This document shows, one piece after another, positions 2,369 to 52,011 of a DNA stretch of 64,000 nucleotides. The stretch comes from a virus. Every line of letters begins with the position of its first letter. The first letter of the stretch is position 1. The translations under genes were made by a program, and so were the position numbers. The notes beneath the pieces were generated by a model, which was not told the DNA's origin, ran no database searches, and saw only the letters and a program-made list of their open reading frames with translations. The stretch is from positions 1-64,000 of IMG/VR virus record IMGVR_UViG_3300005573_000063, one strand, 5' to 3'.

Positions 2369-2566
2369 TCATTTTATTTTTTTTACGTTCTTTTCTAATT
2401 CCCAAGAAAATCCATGATCGTGAGATGAGGCACCCTTATTGAGAAGATGAGAGAACCTATGTATAGAAAAGTAATGTTTAGTATCTTGATAAGAACCGTC
2501 ATAACTTCCGTGATGAAACTCGTTGAGGTGTTTAATTACACCTATACCTTTCTTCGGTTTAACCAT
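2369..2566 (-). CDS. Six-His family small protein (member 1)
   Basis: HLNEFH...HRFSH...HDHGFSW. Confidence 0.75.
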   Translation of the reverse strand: MVKPKKGIGVIKHLNEFHHGSYDGSYQDTKHYFSIHRFSHLLNKGASSHDHGFSWELEKNVKKIK

Positions 2567-2756
2567 TTTTCTTCCAGTCTACTCCGTGATTATGAGGTTT
2601 CATTCCTTTAGTTTCGGCTCTATGCATGCGCCTATGGTGCTCGTAGTAACCTAGGGGGTCATAAAGTGAACCGTCAAGCTCCCTTTGGTGAGCTTCATTA
2701 AGGTGACGCACTACAGGACTATTCCTCCATGGAGAGTCTGGTTTCACCTCTCTCAT
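2559..2756 (-). CDS. Six-His family small protein (member 2)
   Basis: HLNEAH...HRRMH...HNHGVDW; start at 2756 overlaps the upstream stop (ATGA). Confidence 0.75.
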   Translation of the reverse strand: MREVKPDSPWRNSPVVRHLNEAHQRELDGSLYDPLGYYEHHRRMHRAETKGMKPHNHGVDWKKNG

Positions 2757-2986
2757 GGATAACTCCAGTATTTTACACCATGATTGTGAGGAACGCAATC
2801 CCTTACTAATCCTCTATCAAATCCCCACAACCCCTTCGGAGGAGGAAAACCCAACCCTATATTCGGCATATATTTCTTATCGTGATATTGTATATGGTAA
2901 TTGAGATACCATAGAGTGTTTTTATCCCCTGCTAGTATACCTCCGTGATGAGTGACCAGATGATCCAATAGCGCATTCTTACTCAT
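2753..2986 (-). CDS. Six-His family small protein (member 3)
   Basis: MSKNALLDHLVTHH...HIQYH...HNHGVKYW; start reassigned to ATG 2986. Confidence 0.75.
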   Translation of the reverse strand: MSKNALLDHLVTHHGGILAGDKNTLWYLNYHIQYHDKKYMPNIGLGFPPPKGLWGFDRGLVRDCVPHNHGVKYWSYP

Positions 2987-2988
2987 TC

Positions 2989-3168
2989 TTATTGCTTCGA
3001 GTCCGGAACTTCGGAGACGCCAATAAAGAGTAAGACCATAAGAATAATGATTGCGATGGCACTTAAAACAACGCCAAATCCTGAGGAAAAGGTTGCTCCC
3101 CAAATAGCGATAAAGATAGCGACCCACAAAATGCGAAGTTGAGATTCCTTGCTTACGTAGGCATACAT
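2989..3168 (-). CDS. Small membrane protein (59 aa, not in ORF track)
   Basis: MYAYVSKESQLRILWVAIFIAIWGATFSSGFGVVLSAIAIIILMVLLFIGVSEVPDSKQ; two hydrophobic segments; fills the gap between neighbours. Confidence 0.6.
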   Translation of the reverse strand: MYAYVSKESQLRILWVAIFIAIWGATFSSGFGVVLSAIAIIILMVLLFIGVSEVPDSKQ

Positions 3169-3171
3169 TTT

Positions 3172-3393
3172 TTACTTCTCCTTGAGAGAGATATGAATAT
3201 GGTCGATAATGTCGGAGTTTGATCTAGTTGTCTTTATCGGAAGATGAGAAAAATCACCGTAATGGAGTGCTCTATGCTCTGTATAGTAGAAGAAAAGTTC
3301 TGAAGTTCCTTCGTAGTGATTAGCAGGGGAGTGATATTGGTTCAAGTGTTTCCACACACTACTCCCCTTCCCTAGCCTTCCACTCATTCCCAC
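3172..3393 (-). CDS. Six-His family small protein (member 4)
   Basis: HLNQYH...HRALH...HIH. Confidence 0.7.
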   Translation of the reverse strand: MGMSGRLGKGSSVWKHLNQYHSPANHYEGTSELFFYYTEHRALHYGDFSHLPIKTTRSNSDIIDHIHISLKEK

Positions 3394-4277
3394 TACTCCC
3401 CTTCCATCTCTCCATAAGAAATTCCCTGGATAAGGTCAGCAGCCTTTTGAGCCAAACCAGCAGCCTTCACCACAAGCTTCTGATCCCCCTTCAGAGCCTT
3501 CAACCAGCTTCCAATATAGGCTGCAGAGTTCTCCACGTTCCAATTAATTCCTGCGACCCCACAGAGCATTGCAGCTCCCATCTCAGCTACCAATTCCTCC
3601 GCAGAGTAAAGCTCATCTCCGAACTTGTGGTTCTCTACAACTCCTTCTCGATTAAGACGAGAAGAATGTCCAGTAGAGTGAGTCATCTCGTGGAAGAGAG
3701 TTCCATAGTAGCTCTCTGTGTTATGAAAGCTAGTACGCACCGGCATCGTAATGCAATCCCTAGATGGGCTATAGGACGCCTCTGTACCCTCCTTAACAAT
3801 CTCTGGATGATTCTTTGAAGAGAGATAGGTCCTCACAATTTCTTGAGCACCCTCGTGAGGAGTCAATTTTGACTCACCCTTAATAGCAGGCACCTCTAGC
3901 TCGTCGCACTGGCTAGCGTTAAAGACGTTGAAGTAGCGCAGCATCATAAAAGAATTGTTTTTGATTGAACCATCATCTCGAACTTCTTCTTTCTCCAGGC
4001 GCTTCCAAAAGATGACCAGAGTAGACTTCTCACCCTTGCGCACCTGACCCCCACGAGCCTCTATCTGCTTGTAGGTCCCCCACCACGGGGACGAGTAGCC
4101 ATTGATCTGAGCTGAGAGCCCAAGAAGGAAGATATTCAGACCACGATATGCCTTCTTCGTGGACAGGGAACGGGGCAGCCCCACTTCGGGATTCCATGGC
4201 TTCTGCCAGGGAACGACACCCTGATTTAGGGACTCGATAATCTTGTCTGTCACAATTTGGTAGATGTCTAGTGCCAC
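3393..4277 (-). CDS. ardC: ArdC-like antirestriction protein (ssDNA-binding plus zincin-like domain)
   Basis: VPWQKPW, YRGLN, WGTYKQ, VRKGEKS, HEMTHSTGH and YSAEELVAE motifs; GTG start after AAGGAGG. Confidence 0.85.
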   Translation of the reverse strand: MALDIYQIVTDKIIESLNQGVVPWQKPWNPEVGLPRSLSTKKAYRGLNIFLLGLSAQINGYSSPWWGTYKQIEARGGQVRKGEKSTLVIFWKRLEKEEVRDDGSIKNNSFMMLRYFNVFNASQCDELEVPAIKGESKLTPHEGAQEIVRTYLSSKNHPEIVKEGTEASYSPSRDCITMPVRTSFHNTESYYGTLFHEMTHSTGHSSRLNREGVVENHKFGDELYSAEELVAEMGAAMLCGVAGINWNVENSAAYIGSWLKALKGDQKLVVKAAGLAQKAADLIQGISYGEMEGE

Positions 4278-4308
4278 GGTGATCCTCCTTGGTCGCTCCA
4301 ATACAAGT

Positions 4309-5413: not shown

Positions 5414-5614
5414 CTATTTTTGGTCATTAGACCATTCCTTTACTCCATGGTCGTGAAGATTCGTCTTATCTTTTAGTCGGGCAACTCGCCGGTCATATGA
5501 ATCCCTATGATAACACATATGTGTGAAATAAGGATTGGTCATAAATATGACTGAATCAAGTGGAATCTCATGCCTTTTCCCTAAGTGAATGTATATTCCT
5601 TCAGCGTAACTCAC
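5414..5614 (-). CDS. Six-His family small protein (member 5)
   Basis: HLGKRH...HMCYH...HDHGVKEW. Confidence 0.75.
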   Translation of the reverse strand: MSYAEGIYIHLGKRHEIPLDSVIFMTNPYFTHMCYHRDSYDRRVARLKDKTNLHDHGVKEWSNDQK

Positions 5615-41509: not shown

Positions 41510-42127
41510 TTAATCTCGTGGTAATGCAGCTAGCTCGTCATCGTTTCGCACAAAGTCCACAAAATCGTAAGACCTCTTATTCATGACTCTAGCAACCTCT
41601 TCAAATGAAACAGGTCGATACCCTACAAAATCTATCGTATTATCCACTCCAACATCTACTCTGGTATTTCCTTTGTTGTTGAGGTTGTTGTGGCAGTGAC
41701 CATGCAGCATCCAAGAGCCCTTTCCCGCTCCATTCCACGAAAGAATAGGATAGTGGCATAAGACAATTTTCTGTCCATCTACCTTAATCTCGGCATACTG
41801 CCCATAGAACTCGAACAGTTTTTTGCCTTCTTCACTCTTAGCAATTTGGTCGGTTACCTTCTTATCATGGTTTCCGGAAATAAAGTGCTTTTTCCCATTC
41901 AACTGACGAAGAACTGAAAAAGTCTTTTCCTGATTCATAAAGGAGAAATCTCCTAGGTGCCATACTGTATCATCAGGCTGAACCATGCTGTTCCAATTAG
42001 CAATTAACTTCCAGTTCATTTCATCTGCATTGGCATATGGACGAAAGCAGATACGTCTCACAAATTCATGTCCGAAATGTAGTTAAAGATCTGAAGTAAA
42101 CCAAGTCATTGGTTTTCTATCAGACAT
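41510..42127 (-). CDS. Calcineurin-like phosphoesterase with in-frame TAA in motif I (recoded or pseudogene)
   Basis: MSDRKPMTWFTSDL*LHFGH, then intact HLGD, GNHD, CHYP and HGHCH motifs. Confidence 0.75.
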
Positions 42128-42232
42128 AATTCATCACTCTTCCTTTCTTTTTATTTTTAGTATTTTTCCCAGTAACAGACGTAAAATCAAGTGCCCTAAA
42201 TGAGTATCGCTAGTGAAGAATGTGCTTATACA

Positions 42233-42679
42233 TTATCCTCCTTGACAGGCTGTATCCTTTATAATTCCAGGTACCTTAGATGCTACAGCAATTTCACAGA
42301 TCAGTCTTCTATTAACTGCATCTGTCGCAATGATATGAGATATATCTTGCTGCAGAATACTCTCTGCTGTTTTAACAAGAGCAGCTTCTTTTACGGCTGC
42401 CTGCGCTGCAGTACTAGCTGAAGCTGCTGCACTTTGTTTGTCATGCGTTAGTAGTGCTTCGATGTCCTTAGAGAGTCGCAAGCGAGTTTGGCTGTTGGCA
42501 TTATTAGATAGCTCCAGTGTTTTGATATCTTTTACAATACTGTGGGTGCTATTGCTAATCGCATTTTGTCTGTTAGTTGTTTGGACTGTTTGGTAAAATG
42601 CCTGAAAAACTGCTCCCAATACAGCAAGAGTAAAAAGTAACACTGCAATTCCAATAAACCATTTTCTTAGTCTGGACAT
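42233..42679 (-). CDS. Membrane-anchored coiled-coil protein
   Basis: N-terminal TM segment, long helix, C-terminal Cys pair. Confidence 0.5.
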   Translation of the reverse strand: MSRLRKWFIGIAVLLFTLAVLGAVFQAFYQTVQTTNRQNAISNSTHSIVKDIKTLELSNNANSQTRLRLSKDIEALLTHDKQSAAASASTAAQAAVKEAALVKTAESILQQDISHIIATDAVNRRLICEIAVASKVPGIIKDTACQGG

Positions 42680-42765
42680 TTATCTTTCCTTAAGTATTTC
42701 TTTCGATACTAAATAATGCTCTCATGTCCAGATATTACATAAATGCTACTTATGATCTGTGCCGG

Positions 42766-42854
42766 TGGACGCACTGGGATTCGAACCCAGGATGGGCTTT
42801 TAAGCACTCCAGATTAAAAGTCTGGCTCAATCGACCTAGCTCTGTCATACGTCC
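42766..42854 (-). tRNA. tRNA-Lys(TTT) with long variable arm
   Basis: CCAGA-CTTTTAA-TCTGG; CTGGG-TTCGAAT-CCCAG. Confidence 0.8.
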
Positions 42855-43068
42855 ATGTTTACTTCACTCTACATCTTATTGATAATGATTGCAACCTCCT
42901 CTTCAAGATCTTCTAGTCTTTGCTCTAGATTAGCTACTCTATTTTTTAGAGCCTCAACTTCTGAAAAATCCTCTTGAGGTGTAGGAATTGACATTGGACT
43001 TGCGGGGAGATCCCACAAGCTATAGTTACTAACTCCGCTAGTTTTCATAGTAAATTCCTTTCTTTTAG

Positions 43069-43139
43069 TAGACGCACTCAGAATCAAACTGAGGAAGAGG
43101 CCGTGTAAAAGCCTTATTTTATCACTAAATTATGCGTCC
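43069..43139 (-). tRNA. tRNA-Val(TAC)
   Basis: AGGCT-TTTACAC-GGCCT; atypical T-loop TTTGATT. Confidence 0.7.
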
Positions 43140-43140
43140 A

Positions 43141-43229
43141 TGGGGTGAATAACCGGATTTGAACCGGCACGAGCATTATGCTCAATAGGGTCACAACCTA
43201 TCGCGTCTACCAATTTCGCCATATCCACC
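43141..43229 (-). tRNA. tRNA-His(GTG) with long variable arm
   Basis: G-1; ATAGG-TTGTGAC-CCTAT; GAGCA-TAA-TGCTC variable stem; CCA. Confidence 0.85.
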
Positions 43230-43234
43230 ATGTT

Positions 43235-44011
43235 TTACTTCTCCTCCAGAGTACCAGCTTCCACTGGCAGTGTCAAGAGGTACGTTGCATTATCTATATT
43301 CCCCCAAGGAATATTAGCACCCATGCCGTGCACCTTAGTAAGGTGACCATCTGGAGATACATAATCCTTGTCGTAGCGTACATGATGATGTCCGTGGAAC
43401 ATCTCATCTGGCTCACAATAATTTACAATTGCACCAATGCTTCTTCTTTGCTGCCTACTATCTAGGCTTATTTCTGGAGGCAGCCACCTATCATTGTAGC
43501 GTGGGTCTATATCAGAAATTTCTGTGAAGGGGCATTCATGTGACACGAAATAATCTACTTTTCCTGCAGACATAGAACGCTCTACATCCCCCAAAGAAAT
43601 CATTTCTTGAGGCCACCAGCTCTTACCCATAATACGACTCTCCCGATCAATAGAGACAGCTCCTCCACAAGAGAGAAATTTCTTATTACTCCAGTCCCAA
43701 GTATATCCTCGTGGCAAGTAGAACACACCAGGAGCTATCTCGAAGGTACCGTCTTCTTGAGGTGCCAATGTCCCCACAGCATCATAATTTTCGTGATTAC
43801 CCCCTAACCAATAGAGGGGAATTCCATAATTTTGTACACACTTAGACACCCATTTATGGTATGCGCCCATATGAGGCCAGTATCCAAAATCTCCTAGTTG
43901 AAGAATTACTTCAGCTTTTCTCTCGCTCGCACGCTTAAACACACGAGAGGTAAAAGAGTCGTCTCCGTGAAGATCCCCAACCATTAGGATTTTTGAATAA
44001 TTGCCTTCCAT
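43235..44011 (-). CDS. Metallophosphoesterase
   Basis: GDLHG, LGDFG, GNHE, GGAVSID, HGHHH. Confidence 0.85.
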   Translation of the reverse strand: MEGNYSKILMVGDLHGDDSFTSRVFKRASERKAEVILQLGDFGYWPHMGAYHKWVSKCVQNYGIPLYWLGGNHENYDAVGTLAPQEDGTFEIAPGVFYLPRGYTWDWSNKKFLSCGGAVSIDRESRIMGKSWWPQEMISLGDVERSMSAGKVDYFVSHECPFTEISDIDPRYNDRWLPPEISLDSRQQRRSIGAIVNYCEPDEMFHGHHHVRYDKDYVSPDGHLTKVHGMGANIPWGNIDNATYLLTLPVEAGTLEEK

Positions 44012-45321
44012 TATTCCCTTTCTCTGTGAAGAATTGCGTGGAGCCCATCAGACATATTGTCCAAGTGCTGCTTACACAGTTCTAGTATATCACTTGGAGC
44101 GCATCCTACGCAAGTCAGGGCTGCCTTTTTTAAGAGAGCCCCAGAGGCATCTGGGTAAAACCACTGTATAAGAGAAGTTGCCTGCTCCGCATCCAGGTTA
44201 GAAATCTGAAGAATCCGATCTACACGTCCAGGTCGAATCAAAGCTGGGTCTAGTGCTCCTATGTTATTCGTTGTCATGATAGTAATCATGCCATGAGGAG
44301 TGTTAATCCCATCCAGAGCGTTGAGGAGGCCCGATAGAGAAACTTTATTTCCATCATCGTCCCTTTCTGTAGCTGCATGAAAGACATCAATATCTTCCAA
44401 CAGCAGAATAGAACGAGGCTCAACATCTCCTATTAGCTTGAGAAGATCGTTGTCCTTCCCTAGATCGGCCAGTGAGAGAGCCCACAAGTCCAGATCATAT
44501 TCATGAGCTAGTCCCCAAGCCACACTGGTTTTACCTGTTCCTGGAGGACCACTGAGAAGGTAACCTCTATGCCATGGAATTGCTCGACTCACATACTTCT
44601 TCTCTTGAGAGAGAAAATGCTCTAGGTCTGTACGAATTTCGGCAAGTTGGTCTTTCTTCAAGATAACAGAGGAAAGAGGACGAGGGGGAAGGTCCGAACG
44701 AGTTTCCCACCTTCCCCACCCATCTGGAACATTTATACGAGGTCCTTTACGTGTTACATCCAAGGTCTTAGCCATTTCGAATAAAAACTCCCGAACAGCG
44801 TTCTGTCCTTCCAGAGAGGTCGTAGAGAACTTGAGCTTTTCAAAAGTTCTTTGCTTAACATCTCCCAAATTAGTGGAAGTAGATAGACCTCCTCCGATAA
44901 GGTCTTCCTTTTCGATGACTACTTGGACACTGTAACCTCCAATAGTTAGATCGAATTCTCGGTCCGAGTCGAAAAAGAATTCGACTGTGGTTTTCTTTTG
45001 ATATTCCTCTAGTCCCCACTCCTCTGGAATTTCAAGGCCAGGTGCCCGAGTCCTTTTGGAATCCGCTATCAGGTGACGAGTCTCAGATGGATTAGACTGC
45101 TTCATTAACCATGCAGCAATCGGTGGAAAGATTTCGTCATTAGTAGGAATGGAGATGGAGAACATTTTCTTCTCAGCCATACTGCTTAGGTAGGACTTCA
45201 TAATATTATATGCACCCACTCCTGCAGTAGCGTAAGTCATCCATCGAGCAATTCGAGTATTGTCCTTAACTATTCCTGAATTCCTAATTAAATTCCATGA
45301 TTGATTTATCTCTTTGTCCAT
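44011..45321 (-). CDS. BCS1-like AAA ATPase
   Basis: IPWHRGYLLSGPPGTGKTS, LLEDID, SGLLNALDG, LDPALIRPGRVD. Confidence 0.85.
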   Translation of the reverse strand: MDKEINQSWNLIRNSGIVKDNTRIARWMTYATAGVGAYNIMKSYLSSMAEKKMFSISIPTNDEIFPPIAAWLMKQSNPSETRHLIADSKRTRAPGLEIPEEWGLEEYQKKTTVEFFFDSDREFDLTIGGYSVQVVIEKEDLIGGGLSTSTNLGDVKQRTFEKLKFSTTSLEGQNAVREFLFEMAKTLDVTRKGPRINVPDGWGRWETRSDLPPRPLSSVILKKDQLAEIRTDLEHFLSQEKKYVSRAIPWHRGYLLSGPPGTGKTSVAWGLAHEYDLDLWALSLADLGKDNDLLKLIGDVEPRSILLLEDIDVFHAATERDDDGNKVSLSGLLNALDGINTPHGMITIMTTNNIGALDPALIRPGRVDRILQISNLDAEQATSLIQWFYPDASGALLKKAALTCVGCAPSDILELCKQHLDNMSDGLHAILHRERE

Positions 45322-45351
45322 TCGTATTTTCTCCTTTATCTTGTCTAACAG

Positions 45352-45428
45352 AGCCGCAAGGGGGAGTCGAACCCAAACCTTCCTCTGACTTACAGGGCCA
45401 GCGCTACATCCATATGAGCTTTTACGGC
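45352..45428 (-). tRNA. tRNA-Thr(TGT), C33 and weak T-stem
   Basis: GCCGTAA/TTGCGGC; CTGGC-CCTGTAA-GTCAG. Confidence 0.6.
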
Positions 45429-45438
45429 AGGTAGCACC

Positions 45439-45672
45439 CTACACCTCTATTGCATCCTTGTCAACCTCACTAGAAAATCGGTGAGATAATTTGCCAGCAG
45501 TTTCACGGTTAATTACAGAATGCAATAAGGGAAACATTGTTTCCATTTGCTCCTCACTTACAGTGAGTGTTTTGGCAATCATATTAGAGGGGACAACTAT
45601 CTTCGCTAACGCTTTCTGTACATTCGCTACCTCTTCACTTGAGCACTTGATTCCCAATACAGAATATCTCAT
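45439..45672 (-). CDS. Hypothetical protein
   Basis: Coupled (ATGA) to the upstream HNH gene. Confidence 0.45.
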   Translation of the reverse strand: MRYSVLGIKCSSEEVANVQKALAKIVVPSNMIAKTLTVSEEQMETMFPLLHSVINRETAGKLSHRFSSEVDKDAIEV

Positions 45673-46019
45673 TTTTCACCTTCTGTTCGTTGAATAGTGG
45701 GAACTACAATTTTGTTTTTCCCTTTATTAGGAGCGGAGTTTTCTTTTACCCACTCTATTCTTTCTTTGAGAAAATCGCTTTCGAGAAATTCTTGAAGACT
45801 TTTTGCTCCCTTTGCTGAGTTGCAAGGATGGCACGCCATCACAATATGATCCCTTAGTTCGGCTCTTTGTTCTTTAGTAAGAGTCTTACGTAAGACCGTG
45901 CGAGGGATAATATGATCTCGTGTTCTATCTTCATACCGTTCTATATATAAGTTACAATAGAAACAGTGGTCATTATTTGTTCGAATGCGAGGGTGGTAAT
46001 ATTTGTTAGAAGATGTCAT
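45669..46019 (-). CDS. HNH endonuclease
   Basis: CFYC...TRDHIIP...ACHPCNSAKG. Confidence 0.8.
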   Translation of the reverse strand: MTSSNKYYHPRIRTNNDHCFYCNLYIERYEDRTRDHIIPRTVLRKTLTKEQRAELRDHIVMACHPCNSAKGAKSLQEFLESDFLKERIEWVKENSAPNKGKNKIVVPTIQRTEGEK

Positions 46020-46021
46020 TA

Positions 46022-46210
46022 TTAGAATTTCTGAGGTATATGAGTATGAATTACTCCCGGTACAGGCTCACCTTCTGAAGCCCTTCTGTGATAATCAGAA
46101 TGTAAAACAAGTAAATGAAGTTGAGTGTTTCCGAAAGGCCAACGTGGATCGGTATTAATTACATTTCTATGCATAGAAGATAAATGCTCTCTTACTTTTT
46201 CAACCGACAT
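46022..46210 (-). CDS. Six-His family small protein (member 7)
   Basis: HLSSMH...HSDYH...HTH. Confidence 0.75.
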   Translation of the reverse strand: MSVEKVREHLSSMHRNVINTDPRWPFGNTQLHLLVLHSDYHRRASEGEPVPGVIHTHIPQKF

Positions 46211-46212
46211 CT

Positions 46213-46401
46213 CTATCTTTTCTTCTCTGGACCATGAGTATGTGCTATTACAGGTTGCACTTCTTTGTAATGTGGATTTTTATGATACTCAGTGTGTACT
46301 TTAATTAAATTGGCCAACTCACCATAAATAGGCCATTGAGGAGAAGTAGTTGGGTACCTATGAAATAAATTAAGATGCTGTTTTACACCTCTTACAGACA
46401 T
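46213..46401 (-). CDS. Six-His family small protein (member 8)
   Basis: HLNLFH...HTEYH...HTHG. Confidence 0.75.
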   Translation of the reverse strand: MSVRGVKQHLNLFHRYPTTSPQWPIYGELANLIKVHTEYHKNPHYKEVQPVIAHTHGPEKKR

Positions 46402-46607
46402 TCCCTCTCCCATTTTTTTAATCCATGTGTATGAAAGACAACCGGCTGAACAAGTGAAGGATCAAAATTCCGATTTGTTTGATTATGGTAACGACAGTGT
46501 AGAGTTATTAACTTTGTGAAAGTATAGTCGATTCCAGGCCAACCACTTTCACTCTTGGCATATCTATGGAAATCATGAAGGTGGTTTTTTATTGCCTTCA
46601 TACTCAT
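46392..46607 (-). CDS. Six-His family small protein (member 9)
   Basis: HLHDFH...HCRYH...HTHGLKKW. Confidence 0.75.
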   Translation of the reverse strand: MSMKAIKNHLHDFHRYAKSESGWPGIDYTFTKLITLHCRYHNQTNRNFDPSLVQPVVFHTHGLKKWERECL

Positions 46608-46626
46608 TTACTTCTCCTTTTCTAGA

Positions 46627-46705
46627 TGGTATGGGTGGTGGGATTCGAACCCACATCAATCCAATTATGCGCTAACACTTTAGAAGAGTGTGCCAATACA
46701 CCCAC
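46627..46705 (-). tRNA. tRNA-Arg(TCT), no D-arm, extended variable region
   Basis: GTGGGTG-TATTGGC-ACACT-CTTCTAA-AGTGT-N20-GTGGG-TTCGAAT-CCCAC-CACCCAT-ACCA. Confidence 0.7.
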
Positions 46706-46738
46706 ATGCGATACTTCTCTCACTCTACCACAGTTTCG

Positions 46739-46814
46739 AGAGTAGGACAAGATTTGAACTTGCGATTTTAACAGTTTTGCAAACTGTCCCTTTAGGCCAC
46801 TCAGGCACCTACTC
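46739..46814 (-). tRNA. tRNA-Cys(GCA)
   Basis: ACAGT-TTGCAAA-ACTGT; U73. Confidence 0.85.
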
Positions 46815-46826
46815 GTGATTTTAGTT

Positions 46827-47027
46827 TTATATTCTCCAATCTTCTCGACCATGAAAATGGGGAATTGTACCTTCTTCTTTAAAGTGATTTTGACGATTAA
46901 AAATATCATCATGGTAAAACATATGAATACGTATTAAACCCTCTACCGAGAATCTATCTGCCCAGGTAAAGGACTCTTCTTTTGTAAAAGTATGTTGGCT
47001 ATAAAGATGCCGCTTAATTTCTTTCAT
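46827..47027 (-). CDS. Six-His family small protein (member 10)
   Basis: HLYSQH...HMFYH...HFHGREDW. Confidence 0.75.
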   Translation of the reverse strand: MKEIKRHLYSQHTFTKEESFTWADRFSVEGLIRIHMFYHDDIFNRQNHFKEEGTIPHFHGREDWRI

Positions 47028-47032
47028 GCTTA

Positions 47033-47248
47033 TTAACTATTTATCTTCCACCGATCCTGTCCATGGTCATGTATGACTAGATCGCAAGAATATTTTTTCT
47101 CCCATGCTAAAGAACAATGATAGGAGATATGAAGCTTTAGCATCTTCAGACCCTCGTCATCCCCATACCTGTCACACCAATGACTATTATTATCTTTATT
47201 GAAAGTATGACACTCCTCTAAATGACGCCTTAAACCTTTCTGTCTCAT
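47033..47248 (-). CDS. Six-His family small protein (member 11)
   Basis: HLEECH...HISYH...HDHGQDRW. Confidence 0.75.
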   Translation of the reverse strand: MRQKGLRRHLEECHTFNKDNNSHWCDRYGDDEGLKMLKLHISYHCSLAWEKKYSCDLVIHDHGQDRWKINS

Positions 47249-47469
47249 CGCTTCCTCCAATTCCATAATCCATGGTCATGTAGAACTAAGTCAGGATAAA
47301 GATCAACCATCTTTATATCTAGTTGTGCATGATAAATGCAATGTTTCCTAATTAGGAAAGAATGAGCATATTCTAAAGACGCTCCATTCATCTTTGTCCA
47401 TCCCGAGGACATACTTTTTGAGTAAGTATGACAATTCTCTAAATGATCTTGCAGAGACTTCAGGCTCAC
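47245..47469 (-). CDS. Six-His family small protein (member 12)
   Basis: HLENCH...HCIYH...HDHGLWNW. Confidence 0.75.
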   Translation of the reverse strand: MSLKSLQDHLENCHTYSKSMSSGWTKMNGASLEYAHSFLIRKHCIYHAQLDIKMVDLYPDLVLHDHGLWNWRKR

Positions 47470-47654
47470 TCTATTCTCCATCTCCTTAACCCATGGTCGT
47501 GTGGTATCAAATTGGGATATATATTCCTGTTATGATAATCTCGATGCACTTCATACAACATTATAGGAGACTTACATTTCTCTATCCACTCCCAAAAGCC
47601 CGCACCATAGACATGACATCTGTAAAAATGGTTCCTAAGTCCTTCTGTACTCAC
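47466..47654 (-). CDS. Six-His family small protein (member 13)
   Basis: HFYRCH...HRDYH...HDHGLRRW. Confidence 0.75.
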   Translation of the reverse strand: MSTEGLRNHFYRCHVYGAGFWEWIEKCKSPIMLYEVHRDYHNRNIYPNLIPHDHGLRRWRIE

Positions 47655-47866
47655 TTTATCTTCCAAGTTATCTTGCCGTGGTCATGCCTCATTAGATTAG
47701 GATATTTTATATAATCTTTATTGCCAGTATGAATATGGAGATCAGCATGTAAACGACGTAGCCTATCTCCATGCCTATCATCGGCATACCCATCTAACCA
47801 ATGAATATCTTGAACAGTATAACTATGACTACTGTAAATATGCCTAATTATCCCCTTAGCACTCAC
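47651..47866 (-). CDS. Six-His family small protein (member 14)
   Basis: HIYSSH...HADLH...HDHGKITW. Confidence 0.75.
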   Translation of the reverse strand: MSAKGIIRHIYSSHSYTVQDIHWLDGYADDRHGDRLRRLHADLHIHTGNKDYIKYPNLMRHDHGKITWKIK

Positions 47867-48065
47867 TCATCCTCCACTCAATCACCCCATGATCGTGTCT
47901 GACTAAATGTGGATATTGTTGATAAACACTCTCATCTGCCATAATGTGATATTGCCGGTGGCGTTGGATCAATCTCACCAAATCCGATCCTCTTGTCCAT
48001 CCATGATTATTCCGATAGTAACTATGACAATCTTCTAAATGACTTTGAACTCCCTCTATACTCAT
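47856..48065 (-). CDS. Six-His family small protein (member 15)
   Basis: HLEDCH...HRQYH...HDHGVIEW. Confidence 0.75.
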   Translation of the reverse strand: MSIEGVQSHLEDCHSYYRNNHGWTRGSDLVRLIQRHRQYHIMADESVYQQYPHLVRHDHGVIEWRMSEC

Positions 48066-48386
48066 TTAATTCTCCATTATTGCTCTTTTACTTTTTAGTA
48101 GATGGCATCCTTACAAGAGATAAAGACCATGTTTTCCCTCCCACTATTTGGATAACCTGAGCTGCCTTTTTGTTTAAAGACATACGTGCCTTGTGTGGCA
48201 AATAAGTTTTCCAACTCATACTTTCTATACCTCCCGAATGGTGCGAGGGGAAAGAGAAACTGATCGAATGTCCGAAGGGGCTCCAAGCTCCACTCCCGTG
48301 AAAGGAGTGCGAGAATATTCTCCGTGTTTAAAAGCTACGTAAATTGCCTCAACGATCTTCTTCATATTGTCCTTTTCTGATATAGA

Positions 48387-48530
48387 GTACAGTTCTTACA
48401 CGCCTCCAGACTGTCTCTGGAGTCCCTTGGGTTAGTATGTCTACCAGAACCCTCCCCGCACCAGCTCCAGCTTAGCACAAGAGCATCCTCTTGGCAAGCG
48501 TGTTGGAGCCTACATACCTGGGAACTGTAC
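48387..48530 (-). ncRNA. Candidate structured ncRNA (~144 nt)
   Basis: Closing stem GTACAGTTC/GAACTGTAC with several nested helices; begins 3 nt after tRNA-Ser(TGA). Confidence 0.55.
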
Positions 48531-48533
48531 AAG

Positions 48534-48621
48534 CGGATGGACAGAGAGTTGAACTCTGAATCCGGGTCTTAACCGGACAACTGTTTTCAGGACAGCATAC
48601 CTTGCCAATAGCGACCCATCC
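48534..48621 (-). tRNA. tRNA-Ser(TGA), C33
   Basis: GCTGT-CCTGAAA-ACAGT; long variable arm; G73. Confidence 0.75.
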
Positions 48622-48634
48622 AAGATTTAATCAG

Positions 48635-48717
48635 CGGAATGCAGAATACTCGAAATCCATACCTAACGGTACAATTCGCTTAGCAAGCGATTCTGGTGCC
48701 TGACCAGTTTACATTCC
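48635..48717 (-). tRNA. tRNA-Ser(GCT), 8/4 fold
   Basis: 8-bp acceptor GGAATGTA/TGCATTCC; 4-bp T-stem; TCGC-TTGCTAA-GCGA. Confidence 0.75.
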
Positions 48718-48739
48718 GTGTTCTTTTAAAGAACTATTA

Positions 48740-48904
48740 CTATACTCTTTTCCCAAATACGGGAAGAAAACTCAGGGCGAACACAGCTAGACCGAAGCAA
48801 ACAAATGCTAGTACATTCAGTCCTGCGATTGTTCCTATGGCTCCAAGGCCAGCTACTACGAATAGCACTACACTTACTATAATGAGTAAATCTCTGATTG
48901 TCAT
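48740..48904 (-). CDS. Small membrane protein (54 aa, not in ORF track)
   Basis: MTIRDLLIIVSVVLFVVAGLGAIGTIAGLNVLAFVCFGLAVFALSFLPVFGKRV. Confidence 0.5.
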   Translation of the reverse strand: MTIRDLLIIVSVVLFVVAGLGAIGTIAGLNVLAFVCFGLAVFALSFLPVFGKRV

Positions 48905-48963
48905 GATTATATTTCTTTAGGTGGTAGACTCAGCAGCTTTCTTACTGATTTACAATTTCAAAA

Positions 48964-49054
48964 TGGTGGCAGGGGGGAAGACTCGAACTTCCCATTGGTC
49001 TTTCGACCTTCTGATTATGAGTCAGAAAAGCCCCCGCGGCTCTATGTCCCTGCA
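48964..49054 (-). tRNA. tRNA-Met(CAT) with long variable arm and 1:72 mismatch
   Basis: TCTGA-CTCATAA-TCAGA; GGTC-GAAA-GACC variable stem; CCA. Confidence 0.7.
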
Positions 49055-49131
49055 TGGTGACACTGGAAGGACTCGAACCTTCCTAATCCATCTACAGTAT
49101 CCAGTTTAGGAAACTGGGCTGATACAGTGCC
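49055..49131 (-). tRNA. tRNA-Arg(CCT), no D-arm, extended variable region
   Basis: GGCACTG-TATCAGC-CCAGT-TTCCTAA-ACTGG-N18-GAAGG-TTCGAGT-CCTTC-CAGTGTC-ACCA. Confidence 0.7.
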
Positions 49132-49138
49132 TTGTGTG

Positions 49139-49210
49139 AGCCTTCTAGCAGAATCGAACTGCTGATACTTCTATACCAAAGAAGTATGTTCCCACTAGCA
49201 TTAAGAAGGC
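49139..49210 (-). tRNA. tRNA-Thr(GGT)
   Basis: CTTCT-TTGGTAT-AGAAG. Confidence 0.8.
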
Positions 49211-49218
49211 ATAGTGCG

Positions 49219-49292
49219 TATTCCTGGAGGAACTTGAATCCCCGACCTCTTCGTCCGTAGCGAAGCGCTCTAGTCCACTGAGCTACAGGAAC
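49219..49292 (-). tRNA. tRNA-Arg(ACG)
   Basis: CTTCG-CTACGGA-CGAAG; canonical D-arm. Confidence 0.85.
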
Positions 49293-49409
49293 TTGTAGGT
49301 CCCCTGGGAGGCAGGAAAGGAGGAGGGGAAACCACCCCCCAGGGGACGATCTTTTCTCTTTAATCTTCAAAGAGATTACTCATTAAATGAGTACGACTTG
49401 GATTGTATT

Positions 49410-49667
49410 TTACAGGAATGATTCCCCTACCTCTTTATTGAGGAGAACTACTGCTATCAGTGTAGCGTAGTTTCCAGCAAGCGGTGACAAAATAGCTTGA
49501 GCTTCCTCCTCCGAAATAATCTTTTTCTCTACAAGATCATCAGCCGTACTACGCAGACTTCCATATTCACTTGTCAAGAGCTGCGTACTACCTAACCATT
49601 TATTTGTTAGCTCTATTCCTCCTAGGAATAGGGGAGGGTCATTAATCTCTAGACTTCTATCTATCAT
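49410..49667 (-). CDS. Hypothetical protein
   Basis: Coupled (ATGA) to the upstream gene. Confidence 0.45.
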   Translation of the reverse strand: MIDRSLEINDPPLFLGGIELTNKWLGSTQLLTSEYGSLRSTADDLVEKKIISEEEAQAILSPLAGNYATLIAVVLLNKEVGESFL

Positions 49668-49879
49668 TCAGGATACCTCTTGTGCGGTGAGTCGTTTGAA
49701 TTGTATTCACTCTGCAATTCCTTTAAACGTTCTTGGTTTGTGGACAGAGCGAGAACTATAAATATACCAATAAAAGGAATAAGTGTTGGAAGTAGAATGC
49801 CTGCTCCAGGGCGTCCCTTACTTAGTCCTACAACATATCCACCTACAATAGTAATACCCCACAACAATAATAGGACCAT
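49664..49879 (-). CDS. Small membrane protein
   Basis: Two TM segments around a SKGR motif; SD AAGGAG. Confidence 0.55.
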   Translation of the reverse strand: MVLLLLWGITIVGGYVVGLSKGRPGAGILLPTLIPFIGIFIVLALSTNQERLKELQSEYNSNDSPHKRYPE

Positions 49880-49909
49880 CTCTTTCTCCTTTTCTTATCT
49901 TCTCTATAT

Positions 49910-49938
49910 ATTATAGCATGATCTAGGTACGATGTCAA
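49910..49938 (-). promoter_or_regulatory. Consensus sigma70/SigA promoter
   Basis: TTGACA-N17-TATAAT with extended TG. Confidence 0.8.
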
Positions 49939-49955
49939 GCATCTTTTTTCTAAAG

Positions 49956-50064
49956 TGGAGTGAGGAAGAATCGAACTTCCCAGGAACTTATCAGCTCAGA
50001 TTACGTCATCTGCTTGCAAACAGAGAGTGATAATCAGATTATGCCACCGATAAGCACCACACCC
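49956..50064 (-). ncRNA. tRNA-like RNA (acceptor plus T-arm plus long irregular hairpin)
   Basis: GGGTG/CACTC-CA ends; GGAAG-TTCGATT-CTTCC; GCTTATCGGT/GCTGATAAGT stem. Confidence 0.55.
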
Positions 50065-50096
50065 AAATACCTCCTACAACCAGGCACTCCATGGCT

Positions 50097-50351
50097 TTAC
50101 TTACATTTCAAACTATGCTGATATAACTTATCTTTTGCTTCTTTACGAGACTTGAATTGCCAAGTGGATCCCATGACGGAATAACCAAGGCTGTGCACAA
50201 CACTAGAACACTGTGGACAAATTGCTATCCAGCCTCCTCCCGTTCTCACTCCAAAGGTAGTGGGAATATCTTTTAGATAAGTAAGAATGCCTTTCTTGAA
50301 AGAGGCACTTACCTTAATGTCTTTTATCTTGAAGATTGGATTAGGTTTCAT
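50097..50351 (-). CDS. Hypothetical Zn-finger-like protein
   Basis: CPQC...HSLKC. Confidence 0.45.
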   Translation of the reverse strand: MKPNPIFKIKDIKVSASFKKGILTYLKDIPTTFGVRTGGGWIAICPQCSSVVHSLGYSVMGSTWQFKSRKEAKDKLYQHSLKCK

Positions 50352-50354
50352 CTC

Positions 50355-50591
50355 CTATACGACTACCTTTTCAAAATTGACTAGGTAGTCTGCGCCTACC
50401 TCAAATTGGTCAAAGGCTGCAGGATTGGTAATGGTTAGCTCTACGTAGCCTGCAGGAGTCCACTTAGACCACTCCTTATTTTCCTTTCCGTCTCCATAAA
50501 CGGGAGTTAGGCGCACTACCCTCGTAGGGTCTGCAACATTATACTCTGGAGCGGATACTGTATTGCAGTGAAGCTTAGCTTGAACTGTCAT
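50355..50591 (-). CDS. Conserved-looking small phage protein
   Basis: ENKEWSKWTPAGYVELTITNP; SD AAGGAG. Confidence 0.6.
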   Translation of the reverse strand: MTVQAKLHCNTVSAPEYNVADPTRVVRLTPVYGDGKENKEWSKWTPAGYVELTITNPAAFDQFEVGADYLVNFEKVVV

Positions 50592-50707
50592 TTATTTCTC
50601 CTTCTTCTTTTATTTCACGCCAGTCTATCGGGGACCAGCACAGCGTTGGATCATAAAGATGAGGAACATGCGTATTGATATGTGTTTTACATATTTAGTA
50701 TTGCAAC

Positions 50708-51139
50708 CTAATAATCCTGAATATCTTGCATTAGCTCACGTAAGATGCGTACATTTCCACCTGTTTGTAGCCACAGAACAGGAGTGAGTCCCTGTAAATC
50801 ACTAGACTTTGTTGTCATCCAATGAGTAAATACCATGGGGTGTACGGAGGGAGAAAGTTTAACGAGAATATACTTTAAATTCCGCAAGAGCTTGGTCCCT
50901 GCAAATTGAAAATTAGGGAAAAGAAGATCATCATTTTCGCCTCTAAATGCATAGATCATTTTGCGATCTACAAGATCCAGAACATCCTTACATGGTCTGT
51001 TTAAGACCACAGAGGCCGCTCCCACAGACAGGCAATTTAACTCAAATGTTCTTATTGGGAGAGAAGGGGGTGGAAACTTTGCGCTGTTTGCTCCCACACT
51101 CTCCCAAATTTGCCTTTCCTTATGTTCGAGATTCCCCAT
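50708..51139 (-). CDS. Putative DNA-binding protein, paralog of 12006..12479
   Basis: HTH-like N-terminus, FPNFQF, WM...LQGLTPVLWL. Confidence 0.5.
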   Translation of the reverse strand: MGNLEHKERQIWESVGANSAKFPPPSLPIRTFELNCLSVGAASVVLNRPCKDVLDLVDRKMIYAFRGENDDLLFPNFQFAGTKLLRNLKYILVKLSPSVHPMVFTHWMTTKSSDLQGLTPVLWLQTGGNVRILRELMQDIQDY

Positions 51140-51380
51140 GATGCACTTTCTTATTTCTTGTGGTGCCCACCAAATAAATAGTGAATAATATTTGAAATAC
51201 CAAGAAGTAGTCCGCCGATACTAAGAGCGACAATATCCGCATGCATTATTTCTATGCCTCCCTTTTCTCGATCCTATCGCAACAGTGTCATCGTAGCCTA
51301 CCTGACGATGACATGCCACCACCTTACCCATGTTGGGTGGCTCCCCTAATAAACCCAAGCAACAGCTTGGGGATAAAGTC

Positions 51381-51725
51381 CTACCGATTCTGCCATGCCT
51401 TGATGATATCAGGGTGCAGCCGCCCACGCTTCCCCACCTTGAGGCCCTGCTTGATCGCCCATGCTCTCACGTCTCCCACCTTCACCTCTTCACCAGAGGT
51501 GACCACAGGTACGCTCAGACCATCCTCATCATGCAGCACGAGAGCAGGACTGGACTTCTGGTTCCACTCCGCAAAACGCTCATGAGCCCTACGCTGGGCA
51601 TCTGAGAGCCTCCAGTAGTTCTCCTGCACCGTCTCACAGTTCAGGATTGCGAACAGCTCCCGGTAGCGAGCATCCACCGCTTCTGGTGTGTCGCAGTCTG
51701 AAAAGTCAATAAGATCGTCAGCCAT
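51381..51725 (-). CDS. Lsr2-like DNA-binding domain protein
   Basis: DVRAWAIKQGLKVGKRGRLHPDIIKAW matches the Lsr2 C-terminal domain. Confidence 0.8.
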   Translation of the reverse strand: MADDLIDFSDCDTPEAVDARYRELFAILNCETVQENYWRLSDAQRRAHERFAEWNQKSSPALVLHDEDGLSVPVVTSGEEVKVGDVRAWAIKQGLKVGKRGRLHPDIIKAWQNR

Positions 51726-51767
51726 GAGTAGCTCCTTTAGGTAGTAGTGAATTGCTTTAACACCTGT

Positions 51768-51796
51768 AGATTACCACACCACACTCAAGCTGTCAA
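51768..51796 (-). promoter_or_regulatory. sigma70/SigA-type promoter
   Basis: TTGACA-N17-TAATCT. Confidence 0.65.
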
Positions 51797-52011
51797 GTAC
51801 CGTACGTCAGAATTCCTGTGTAAAAAATGTGAAAAATTAGACCATCCTCCACAAACTGTACTGTACTAATGTATCTACCTGGATCTTTATCCAGGATGGT
51901 TCCTGTAGGGACAACGGTAAATGTGATATTTTCTGTCTCTCCCGCAGCAATCTGCTGAGGATCTACGGTAATCCACACACACACTTTATTCCCTTGAGCC
52001 TGCGCTGTCAA
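51793..52011 (-). CDS. Hypothetical protein (possibly N-truncated)
   Basis: VCVWITVDP...VPTG...YISTVQ...FHIF. Confidence 0.4.
   Translation of the reverse strand: MTAQAQGNKVCVWITVDPQQIAAGETENITFTVVPTGTILDKDPGRYISTVQFVEDGLIFHIFYTGILTYGT

Follow-up and report, generated by a model that had tools for sequence, protein, structure and literature searches.

The stretch of DNA considered here, the window, comprises the first 64 kb of the IMG/VR virus record IMGVR_UViG_3300005573_000063, a linear sequence of 122,096 bases estimated to be 78% complete. Its positions 46022-48065 hold nine minus-strand open reading frames (ORFs) that code for miniproteins built around six histidines. These nine are members of a family that has 49 representatives in the whole record, 48 as free-standing genes and one as the N-terminus of a multi-kinase polyvalent ORF of 2,636 amino acids (aa). 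Judged by sequence comparison, the family is almost confined to a single phage lineage, in which it is extraordinarily amplified. We regard both the protein family and its multiplication in this genome as new, and its biochemistry is wholly inferred. The explanation that we favour, tentatively and at a little less than an even chance, is that a metal-stabilised mini-scaffold has given rise to a varied set of proteins that bind targets in host takeover or counter-defence.

A six-histidine scaffold in 49 versions

The nine genes are paralogs, 18-38% identical to the first member in their alignment. Their products are 62-74 aa long if the start codon nearest a conserved MS-x-x-G N-terminus is taken, and 62-78 aa with the first possible start. 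Seven positions are invariant (H9, H14, W24, H37, H41, H55 and H57), and the histidine columns read H-x4-H ... H-x3-H ... H-x-H. The ORFs and the alignment thus bear out the original prediction, made from the DNA letters alone, of nine proteins of 62-74 aa sharing these three histidine pairs. A hidden Markov model (HMM) of the nine, run against the 583 stop-to-stop ORFs of the window, recovers all of them with expectation values (E) from 1e-21 to 3e-29, the next-best match being 5414-5614 (E 5e-5). A regular expression for the three pairs finds 15 of the same 583 ORFs, namely the nine and six copies at 2.4-9.5 kb, and nothing else; after composition-preserving shuffling of each ORF the mean number of matches is 0.07 and the maximum 2. 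The six additional copies, all on the minus strand, had also been foreseen.

A family of 15 is the right count for the window and the wrong one for the record. Motif scanning and an iterated HMM, applied to all six reading frames, brought the count for the record to 46-47, and to 49 after motif-only additions: the iterated HMM reaches 47 of the 49 at E ≤ 1, and two are known by their motif alone. One further match of the regular expression, at 113477-114472 in a part of the record with 70% guanine plus cytosine (GC), was dropped as a histidine-rich false positive. Together the free-standing genes cover 10,245 nt, or 9.2% of the low-GC part of ~111.5 kb. Member lengths range from 49 to 87 aa. 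In the alignment of all 49, a conserved histidine scaffold stands out among variable loops of unequal length: H9, H14, H36, H40 and H59 are invariant, H57 is kept in at least 90% of the sequences, and the N-terminus MS-x-E/K-G-L-L-x-H is strongly conserved across arrays. Histidine makes up 10.4% of the residues, without forming histidine-rich tracts. There is no conserved column of cysteine (on average 0.9 per protein), nor of aspartate or glutamate, and the scaffold columns of 55 sequences contain not a single histidine-to-cysteine exchange. This strict absence may point to a non-zinc or octahedral site, or else selection against oxidisable cysteine in a hot oxic habitat. Isoelectric points (pI) extend from 5.6 to 10.3 with a median of 8.6, and net charges from -5 to +7.

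By the marks that they bear, open frames, ribosome-binding motifs and overlaps, the family members appear to be real genes. A Shine-Dalgarno (SD)-like 4-mer lies upstream of 33 of the 48 (background 14%), and 26 genes begin before the preceding member has ended, as a rule with stop and start codons overlapping by 4 nt or 1 nt. The SD motif of the next gene (GGAG) is often encoded by the H-x-H-G-E/G codons of the gene before it or, in the array of the window, by W-R/K codons near the C-terminus, with dual-coding examples at 47245-47266 and 47651-47670 of the window and at L001 13670-19160 (where L001:5515 is genome position 93515). The tail G-x3-W, described as the usual sequel of H-x-H, is present in seven of the nine array members; since the next gene's SD motif sits inside its W-R/K codons, it is at least partly a constraint at the nucleotide level. 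Counts from a promoter and terminator scan were equal to those from shuffled sequence.

Two elements, which had been read as two transfer RNA (tRNA) genes, break up the array at 46608-46826. One of them, at 46738-46814, is a solidly called tRNA-Cys; the other, at 46630-46706, is a weak, tRNA-like element. The latter is without a normal D arm. No tRNA was found outside 40-56.5 kb, and 40 of the 49 copies lie outside that region, so that the association with tRNAs is incidental and the idea of a functional link, implied when the family was described as embedded in the tRNA region, is not supported.

Relatives, predicted fold and strain variation

The family had been proposed as uncharacterised, and it stays so. 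When each of 52 sequences (the 49 members and three foreign ones) was scanned against Pfam, PHROGs and NCBIfam, no family was matched by more than one member and no curated cut-off was exceeded by any sequence; among PDB sequences, the best match in a profile search had E 0.29. GenBank phages yielded nothing, either to megablast with 45000-49000 or to tblastn with one member (E ≤ 1). Single-protein scans of IMG/VR (P0042, P0003, P0020, P0019 and the tail sheath) returned nothing usable, L005, tried as a relative, had 0 matches to the 49-member alignment, and matches in the ESM Atlas reached no more than 0.86 in score and 0.46 in template-modelling (TM) score, to be taken as leads only. A word-indexed protein search with that alignment, limited by its index, brought up four proteins, all of the phage's own type. 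A literature search, limited in breadth, found no description of such a family.

Relatives came from a profile search of 1.84 billion representative proteins, with 43 matches at E ≤ 0.001. Thirty-six of them are the phage's own proteins or strain variants, with at least 84% identity, and six are foreign homologs (P0003, P0016, P0036, P0038, P0041 and P0042) on short metagenome contigs of at most 3.7 kb. Three of the latter, P0003, P0041 and P0042, carry two or three domains in one chain, which indicates that the histidine domain is self-contained. The 43rd match, the eukaryotic BED-finger protein P0032, is spurious, having aligned only along its His-pair helix. Judged by the tail sheath, the nearest cultured phages are five myoviruses of Gordonia, Mycobacterium and Rhodococcus (27-29% identity); none of the five has a copy of the family, as against 16 matches of that family model in the genome of the phage itself.

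AlphaFold2 (AF2) models were built with the family alignment for two distant members. The product of 47856-48065 is modelled with a mean predicted local distance difference test (pLDDT) score of 81.9 as helices 3-13, 29-42 and 45-50 followed by an extended tail, and that of 103419-103643 (pLDDT 82.7) with the same elements and an extra helix in its variable insert. The two models share helix 1, the central helix and the tail, a common fold that is predicted with confidence. For these models Foldseek returned nothing from PDB or BFVD at E ≤ 0.001. In an exhaustive VIA structure search the best Z scores were 3.8 and 4.6, below the level usual for unrelated helical models; as they reflect common helical arrangements, no fold is claimed. 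A complex prediction for a homodimer with two zinc ions scored 0.02 and was used neither for nor against binding.

Two known kinds of protein were considered and set aside. Hemerythrin/HHE (PF01814) is matched by one of the 52 sequences with 15.1 bits (E 0.033) against a gathering cut-off of 25.3 bits; hemerythrin is a four-helix bundle of ~130 aa with a di-iron site of histidines and carboxylates, whereas the members have 49-87 aa, no acidic column and, in the models, three to five short helices. An array of precursors of ribosomally synthesised and post-translationally modified peptides would show a leader and a hypervariable core, whereas conserved positions here run the whole length, and no maturase family occurs among the Pfam-matched neighbours (HNH, AAA, phosphoesterases, ArdC, DUF7178).

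The copies are far apart from one another. The closest pair of paralogs is 46% identical, which makes the expansion old and the description of the repertoire as "expanding" doubtful; at the DNA level similarity is nearly nil, with five short blastn matches. Neighbouring copies tend to cluster in the tree (12 label changes, against 21.6 when shuffled), most deep forks being unresolved. Variation between strains can be followed on a metagenome contig, L006, 99% identical to window positions 47589-51292, and on contigs of two hot-spring DNA runs, X1 and X2, compared over 42000-52000. Fifteen of the 36 substitutions on L006 fall inside the 216-nt gene 47651-47866, where they change 12 codons, all 12 nonsynonymously; the alternative allele of this gene coexists at about half depth in the hot-spring runs, the assemblies of which break repeatedly inside the nine-gene array. 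Gene 47033-47248 has variants C51S and C61S at partial depth in runs X1 and X2. Among the run variants listed (40 of 59), the family genes have six nonsynonymous and no synonymous changes, the enzyme genes at 42233-46019 none and six, and the small ORFs at 49410-51725 thirteen and eight. With L006 and the runs pooled, the listed variants amount to 15 nonsynonymous and 0 synonymous family codons against 13 and 14 in the other genes of 42-52 kb (Fisher p=4.6e-4). Across 11 strain-variant orthologs there are 41 substitutions, none at a scaffold histidine and three at other histidines.

The same comparison brought out other variable sites. At the tRNA-like element, some X2 contigs have 4 or 22 other letters in place of 46654-46769/46771, so that this site, too, varies between strains. 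Two small minus-strand ORFs without a Pfam family are hot spots of variation, with nine nonsynonymous and three synonymous changes among the variants listed at 50708-51139 and three and one at 50097-50351.

The giant ORF and the genomic surroundings

The copy that is not free-standing opens the giant ORF of 2,636 aa. Its histidine domain is N-terminal, with ~28 residues preceding the motif, and is followed by four PI3_PI4_kinase/HipA_2 stretches and a tail rich in proline and lysine. By eye, one can add three ADP-ribosyltransferase (ART)-like modules of the R-S-E type and a ParB-like "DGYHR"; these parts have weak profile matches (ADPrib_exo_Tox, E 0.028; PHROG RNAP ADP-ribosylase, E 0.32), and phmmer against PDB gave nothing for them. 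The domain is closest to the product of 47651-47866 (32% identity, E 4e-6), with which it forms a sister pair in the tree (support 99/80). Arrays of free-standing copies flank the giant ORF, one of 7 genes at a distance of 1.5 kb on its upstream side and one of 26 genes that starts 65 nt past its end.

From its sequence, this ORF can be recognised as built in the manner of the polyvalent proteins, conflict effectors for which packaging and injection are predicted and which are accompanied by cassette-like small ORFs (Iyer et al., 2017; PMC5512222). The likeness lies in a giant multi-enzyme phage protein placed beside small ORFs homologous to one of its domains. There are differences from that account, as far as the part of it drawn on here extends: its domains are MPTase, BECR and kinases, the histidine domain not being among them; its kinase is a truncated Ser/Thr kinase and not of the PI3/4K-HipA type; and 48 cassettes far exceed the number of polyvalent-protein neighbours in it (PMC5512222).

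Around the nine-gene array is a minus-strand accessory block with HNH endonucleases, an AAA/BCS1-type ATPase, two calcineurin-like phosphoesterases, a 5'-nucleotidase, a dATP/dGTP diphosphohydrolase, a WDGH protein, an Lsr2-domain protein and 21 tRNAs. A gene with ArdC-N and MPTase-PolyVal domains lies directly upstream, by 5 nt, of the four-copy cluster at 2369-3387. The Lsr2 DNA-binding domain (2.4e-8) belongs to a protein of 114 aa at 51381-51725 on the minus strand; apart from this domain and the similarity of the tail sheath, nothing hints that the host of this hot-spring phage of 42% GC is actinobacterial. At 108015-110468 on the plus strand, an 817-aa ORF starts with an intein splicing domain (Pfam 3.1e-10). 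Further on, over ~111.1-122.1 kb (L004:3100-14096), GC content rises from ~0.42 to ~0.70 within ~1 kb and remains at that level until the record ends. The only Pfam match in this part is a DNA methylase at its far end; the part may stem from chimeric assembly or from a foreign insertion, or it may be flanking DNA.

Table 1. Family copies and neighbouring features (His6, family miniprotein; positions are those of the record)
Feature	Position	Strand	Basis and remarks
Four family copies	2369-3387	-	
His6, 65 aa	2369..2566	-	regular expression, HMM
His6, 62 aa	2559..2747	-	regular expression, HMM
His6, 77 aa	2753..2986	-	regular expression, HMM
His6, 71 aa	3172..3387	-	regular expression; HMM E 0.005; 5 nt downstream of ArdC/MPTase gene
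ArdC-N + zincin-like MPTase-PolyVal, anti-restriction type	3393..4301	-	Pfam ArdcN 1.7e-38, MPTase-PolyVal 3e-38
One family copy: His6, 66 aa	5414..5614	-	nine-member HMM 5e-5; regular expression
One family copy: His6, 73 aa	9318..9539	-	regular expression and invariant His columns in 49-member alignment; missed by HMM at E ≤ 1
HNH endonuclease, directly downstream of array	45669..46019	-	Pfam HNH 22.2 bits, cut-off 21.4
Nine family copies	46022-48065	-	
His6, 62 aa, HLSSMH / HSDYH / HTH	46022..46210	-	ORF, alignment, HMM E 1e-21
His6, 62 aa (66 aa from alternative ATG 46413)	46213..46401	-	ORF, alignment; T18N in one strain variant
His6, 71 aa	46392..46607	-	ORF, alignment, HMM; 10-nt overlap with next member
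tRNA-like element, UCU anticodon loop by alignment	46630..46706	-	Rfam tRNA-Sec 26.4 bits, gathering 47; no ARAGORN call
tRNA-Cys (GCA)	46738..46814	-	ARAGORN; Rfam tRNA 55 bits
His6, 66 aa	46827..47027	-	ORF, alignment; E3G variant in run X1
His6, 71 aa (77 aa from alternative ATG 47266)	47033..47248	-	ORF, alignment
His6, 74 aa, GTG start	47245..47469	-	ORF, alignment; 4-nt overlap with neighbour
His6, 62 aa, GTG start	47466..47654	-	ORF, alignment; 4-nt overlap
His6, 71 aa	47651..47866	-	alignment, tree; variation hot spot; closest paralog of giant ORF's N-terminal domain
His6, 69 aa	47856..48065	-	ORF, alignment, AF2; first gene of array; modelled sequence
Seven family copies	90433-92004	+	
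Giant ORF, 2,636 aa, one family copy at N-terminus (ATG 93515 to 101425)	93515-101425 (stop-to-stop 93452-101425)	+	HMM match at aa 42-116 of stop-to-stop ORF
26 family copies, unbroken run	101490-107367	+	

Proposed binders and other possible roles

Metal binding, binder function, expression timing and targets are what we infer from this material. If the favoured explanation holds, the nine genes would be one cluster of lineage-specific helical mini-domains of ~65-75 aa, in which the central helix carries H-x3-H and the C-terminal tail H-x-H, H-x4-H being placed in helix 1 or behind it. Through one or more bound metal ions, the six histidines would hold these two helices and the tail together as a compact core that withstands heat, and the metal would thereby stabilise a protein whose small size probably keeps it from folding well in a hot spring. 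The variable insert and the helix surfaces between the histidines would be left free to vary and could confer binding specificity. In takeover or counter-defence, each of the 48 free-standing versions, laid out in translationally coupled operons in what appear to be non-structural arms, may have a host protein or nucleic acid of its own to bind, and the copy fused to the multi-kinase effector may serve as its targeting or docking head. In favour of this explanation speak the size and layout of the family, the confidently predicted common fold and strain variation that leaves the scaffold histidines untouched.

Phage T4 offers a laboratory precedent for a counter-defence gene, tifA, that is multiplied in tandem (PMC9391042). 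The situations are alike in that a small accessory gene is multiplied in tandem in a phage under host-defence pressure. By contrast, the tifA copies, in the part of that work used here, are recent, identical and selected for dosage (PMC9391042), while the six-histidine family is an old and diversified one in which no two copies exceed 46% identity.

A number of observations weigh against this picture of a diversified binder repertoire. Three related members have W or F instead of H57, and the natural L006 allele of 47651-47866 carries H14N, which means that a scaffold histidine is not absolutely required. The 15 of 15 nonsynonymous changes are to be set against a neutral expectation of 81%, a marginal result among the variants listed (p=0.04); 12 of the 15 changed family codons come from one allele of one gene, and L006, X1 and X2, with 40 of 59 variants counted, may not be independent samples. 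As many as 25 of 36 own-type representatives are 100% identical between strains, and paralogs that are old and mostly strain-identical argue against rapid turnover. On the other side, the diversification proposed at the outset is supported by the spread of charge, the nonsynonymous-only polymorphism and the one cluster beside the ArdC gene. As for the latter adjacency and the fusion to the giant ORF, they may constitute a context of the conflict type, by guilt by association only.

A fuller version of the same explanation would have a calprotectin-like hexahistidine, or other all-histidine, centre within a single helical domain of 65 aa, used as the ultra-stable frame of a positively selected library of 48 minibinders that neutralise targets in host immunity and takeover, and also in the targeting head of an injected effector; we hold it to be unlikely as a whole. 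To our knowledge, hexahistidine coordination has so far been regarded as nearly unique. In calprotectin, the S100A8/A9 heterodimer, site 2 consists of H91, H95, H103 and H105 of A9 with H17 and H27 of A8 (PMC5361872), that is, an H-x3-H on a helix, an H-x-H in a flexible C-terminal tail and two further histidines, as in the phage family. This is a resemblance of motifs, not homology, and a lead. Calprotectin is a metal-withholding EF-hand heterodimer of eukaryotic innate immunity, without relation in sequence or fold, and none of the 52 sequences has an S100 or EF-hand match in Pfam; its histidines come from two chains, whereas all six of the phage domain would act from one chain of 65 aa in a coordination that is hypothetical.

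Several other roles have to be considered. Paralogs might be nucleic-acid-binding regulators akin to zinc fingers, with His-pair helices that work as recognition helices, each paralog reading a different DNA or RNA site in phage promoters, host transcripts or tRNAs and so programming gene expression, a proposal that we find unlikely. As in C2H2 and BED fingers, there is a helix with a histidine pair spaced by three to five residues and preceded by a hydrophobic residue or leucine ("L-x-x-H-L-x-x-x-H"), and the family profile matches the His-pair helices of the BED-finger protein P0032 eight times (query positions 6-45). The median pI, on the basic side, and the ParB-like stretch of the giant ORF would also fit. 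The zinc-finger matches are nevertheless all non-significant and cover one helix (Pfam C2H2, E 0.041 in one of the 52 sequences; PDB 5yj3, E 3, and 2dlq, E 9.7). The family is without the Cys-x2-4-Cys knuckle, and the proteins begin eight residues before the first histidine; it has three histidine pairs rather than one, and its models contain helices only, with no beta-hairpin. From the comparison of sequences, then, it does not appear to be a member of the C2H2/BED zinc fingers, although such helices are the sole similarities found outside the family. Furthermore, charges going down to -5, with 17 of the 48 members neutral or acidic, are unlike a uniform nucleic-acid binder, and 48 regulators far exceed the plausible need of a genome of ~110 kb.

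It is rather improbable, in our view, that the family consists of internal or ejection proteins packaged in the capsid, with the histidine domain as a docking or packaging module comparable to the T4 capsid-targeting sequence or MuF, by which the giant effector and the small paralogs would enter the head and be injected along with the DNA. The internal proteins of T4 are indeed a small and variable anti-restriction cargo. The domain does stand at the N-terminus of an effector of the polyvalent type, a class predicted to be packaged (PMC5512222), and the conserved N-terminus shared across arrays would suit a docking signal. But the small proteins contain little beyond the supposed module, hence no cargo; their arrays lie in non-structural arms beside genes of early type (nucleotide enzymes, HNH, ArdC) and not with head genes; and in the giant ORF the residues ahead of the motif displace it from the extreme N-terminus.

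Still less probably, the paralogs would be antidotes or regulators of the polyvalent effector that bind and silence its kinases or ART-like modules, or the corresponding domains of competing phages, in the manner of the tandem immunity genes found next to polymorphic toxins. The closeness of the 26-gene and 7-gene arrays to the giant ORF speaks for this, as do the cassette-like small ORFs beside polyvalent kinase proteins (PMC5512222) and the tandem immunity arrays known in toxin systems (PMC3113570). An immunity protein would, however, not usually occur as a domain inside its own effector, 15 of the copies are located 45-90 kb away from it, and its ~8 enzymatic domains would face 48 small proteins.

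The suggestion, already part of the original prediction, that the proteins are metal sponges, or metallochaperones, the six histidines taking nickel, zinc, iron or manganese and thereby starving or supplying metalloenzymes of the host or the phage, appears very improbable. The high histidine content, the layout mirroring the hexahistidine site of calprotectin (PMC5361872) and a weak NCBIfam match to a HypB prefix (E 0.009, one of the 52 sequences) would agree with it. Dosage would favour identical copies, whereas no two of these exceed 46% identity and their surfaces diverge; conservation is confined to the six histidines, with no histidine-rich tracts, and sequestration has no role for nonsynonymous-only surface variation. 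The sponge fails to explain 49 divergent surfaces. Finally, to selfish or decaying amplified DNA without present function, which relaxed constraint behind the nonsynonymous-only variation and the allele that lost a scaffold histidine might recall, we give hardly any credence: all 48 frames are open with starts and SD motifs kept, the scaffold columns are invariant at 46% identity or less and spared by all 41 strain substitutions, and almost no repeat similarity is left in the DNA (the five short blastn matches).

If the favoured explanation is correct, this would be a new metalloprotein fold with an all-histidine set of ligands, and one of the largest paralog expansions in a phage, with 49 copies making up ~9% of the genome. 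Phages would then, as poxviruses and giant viruses do, build large and diversified repertoires of binders on one scaffold; if the hexahistidine reading is right as well, a virus would encode a natural repertoire of binders, built on a metalloprotein fold that is itself new. The scaffold would be of practical interest as a thermostable natural frame for minibinders, and the repertoire would open a route to the targets of defence and takeover in an uncultured hot-spring host. Even with a different function, the family is a testable case of viral "dark matter", offering 49 natural variants of one fold in a single genome.

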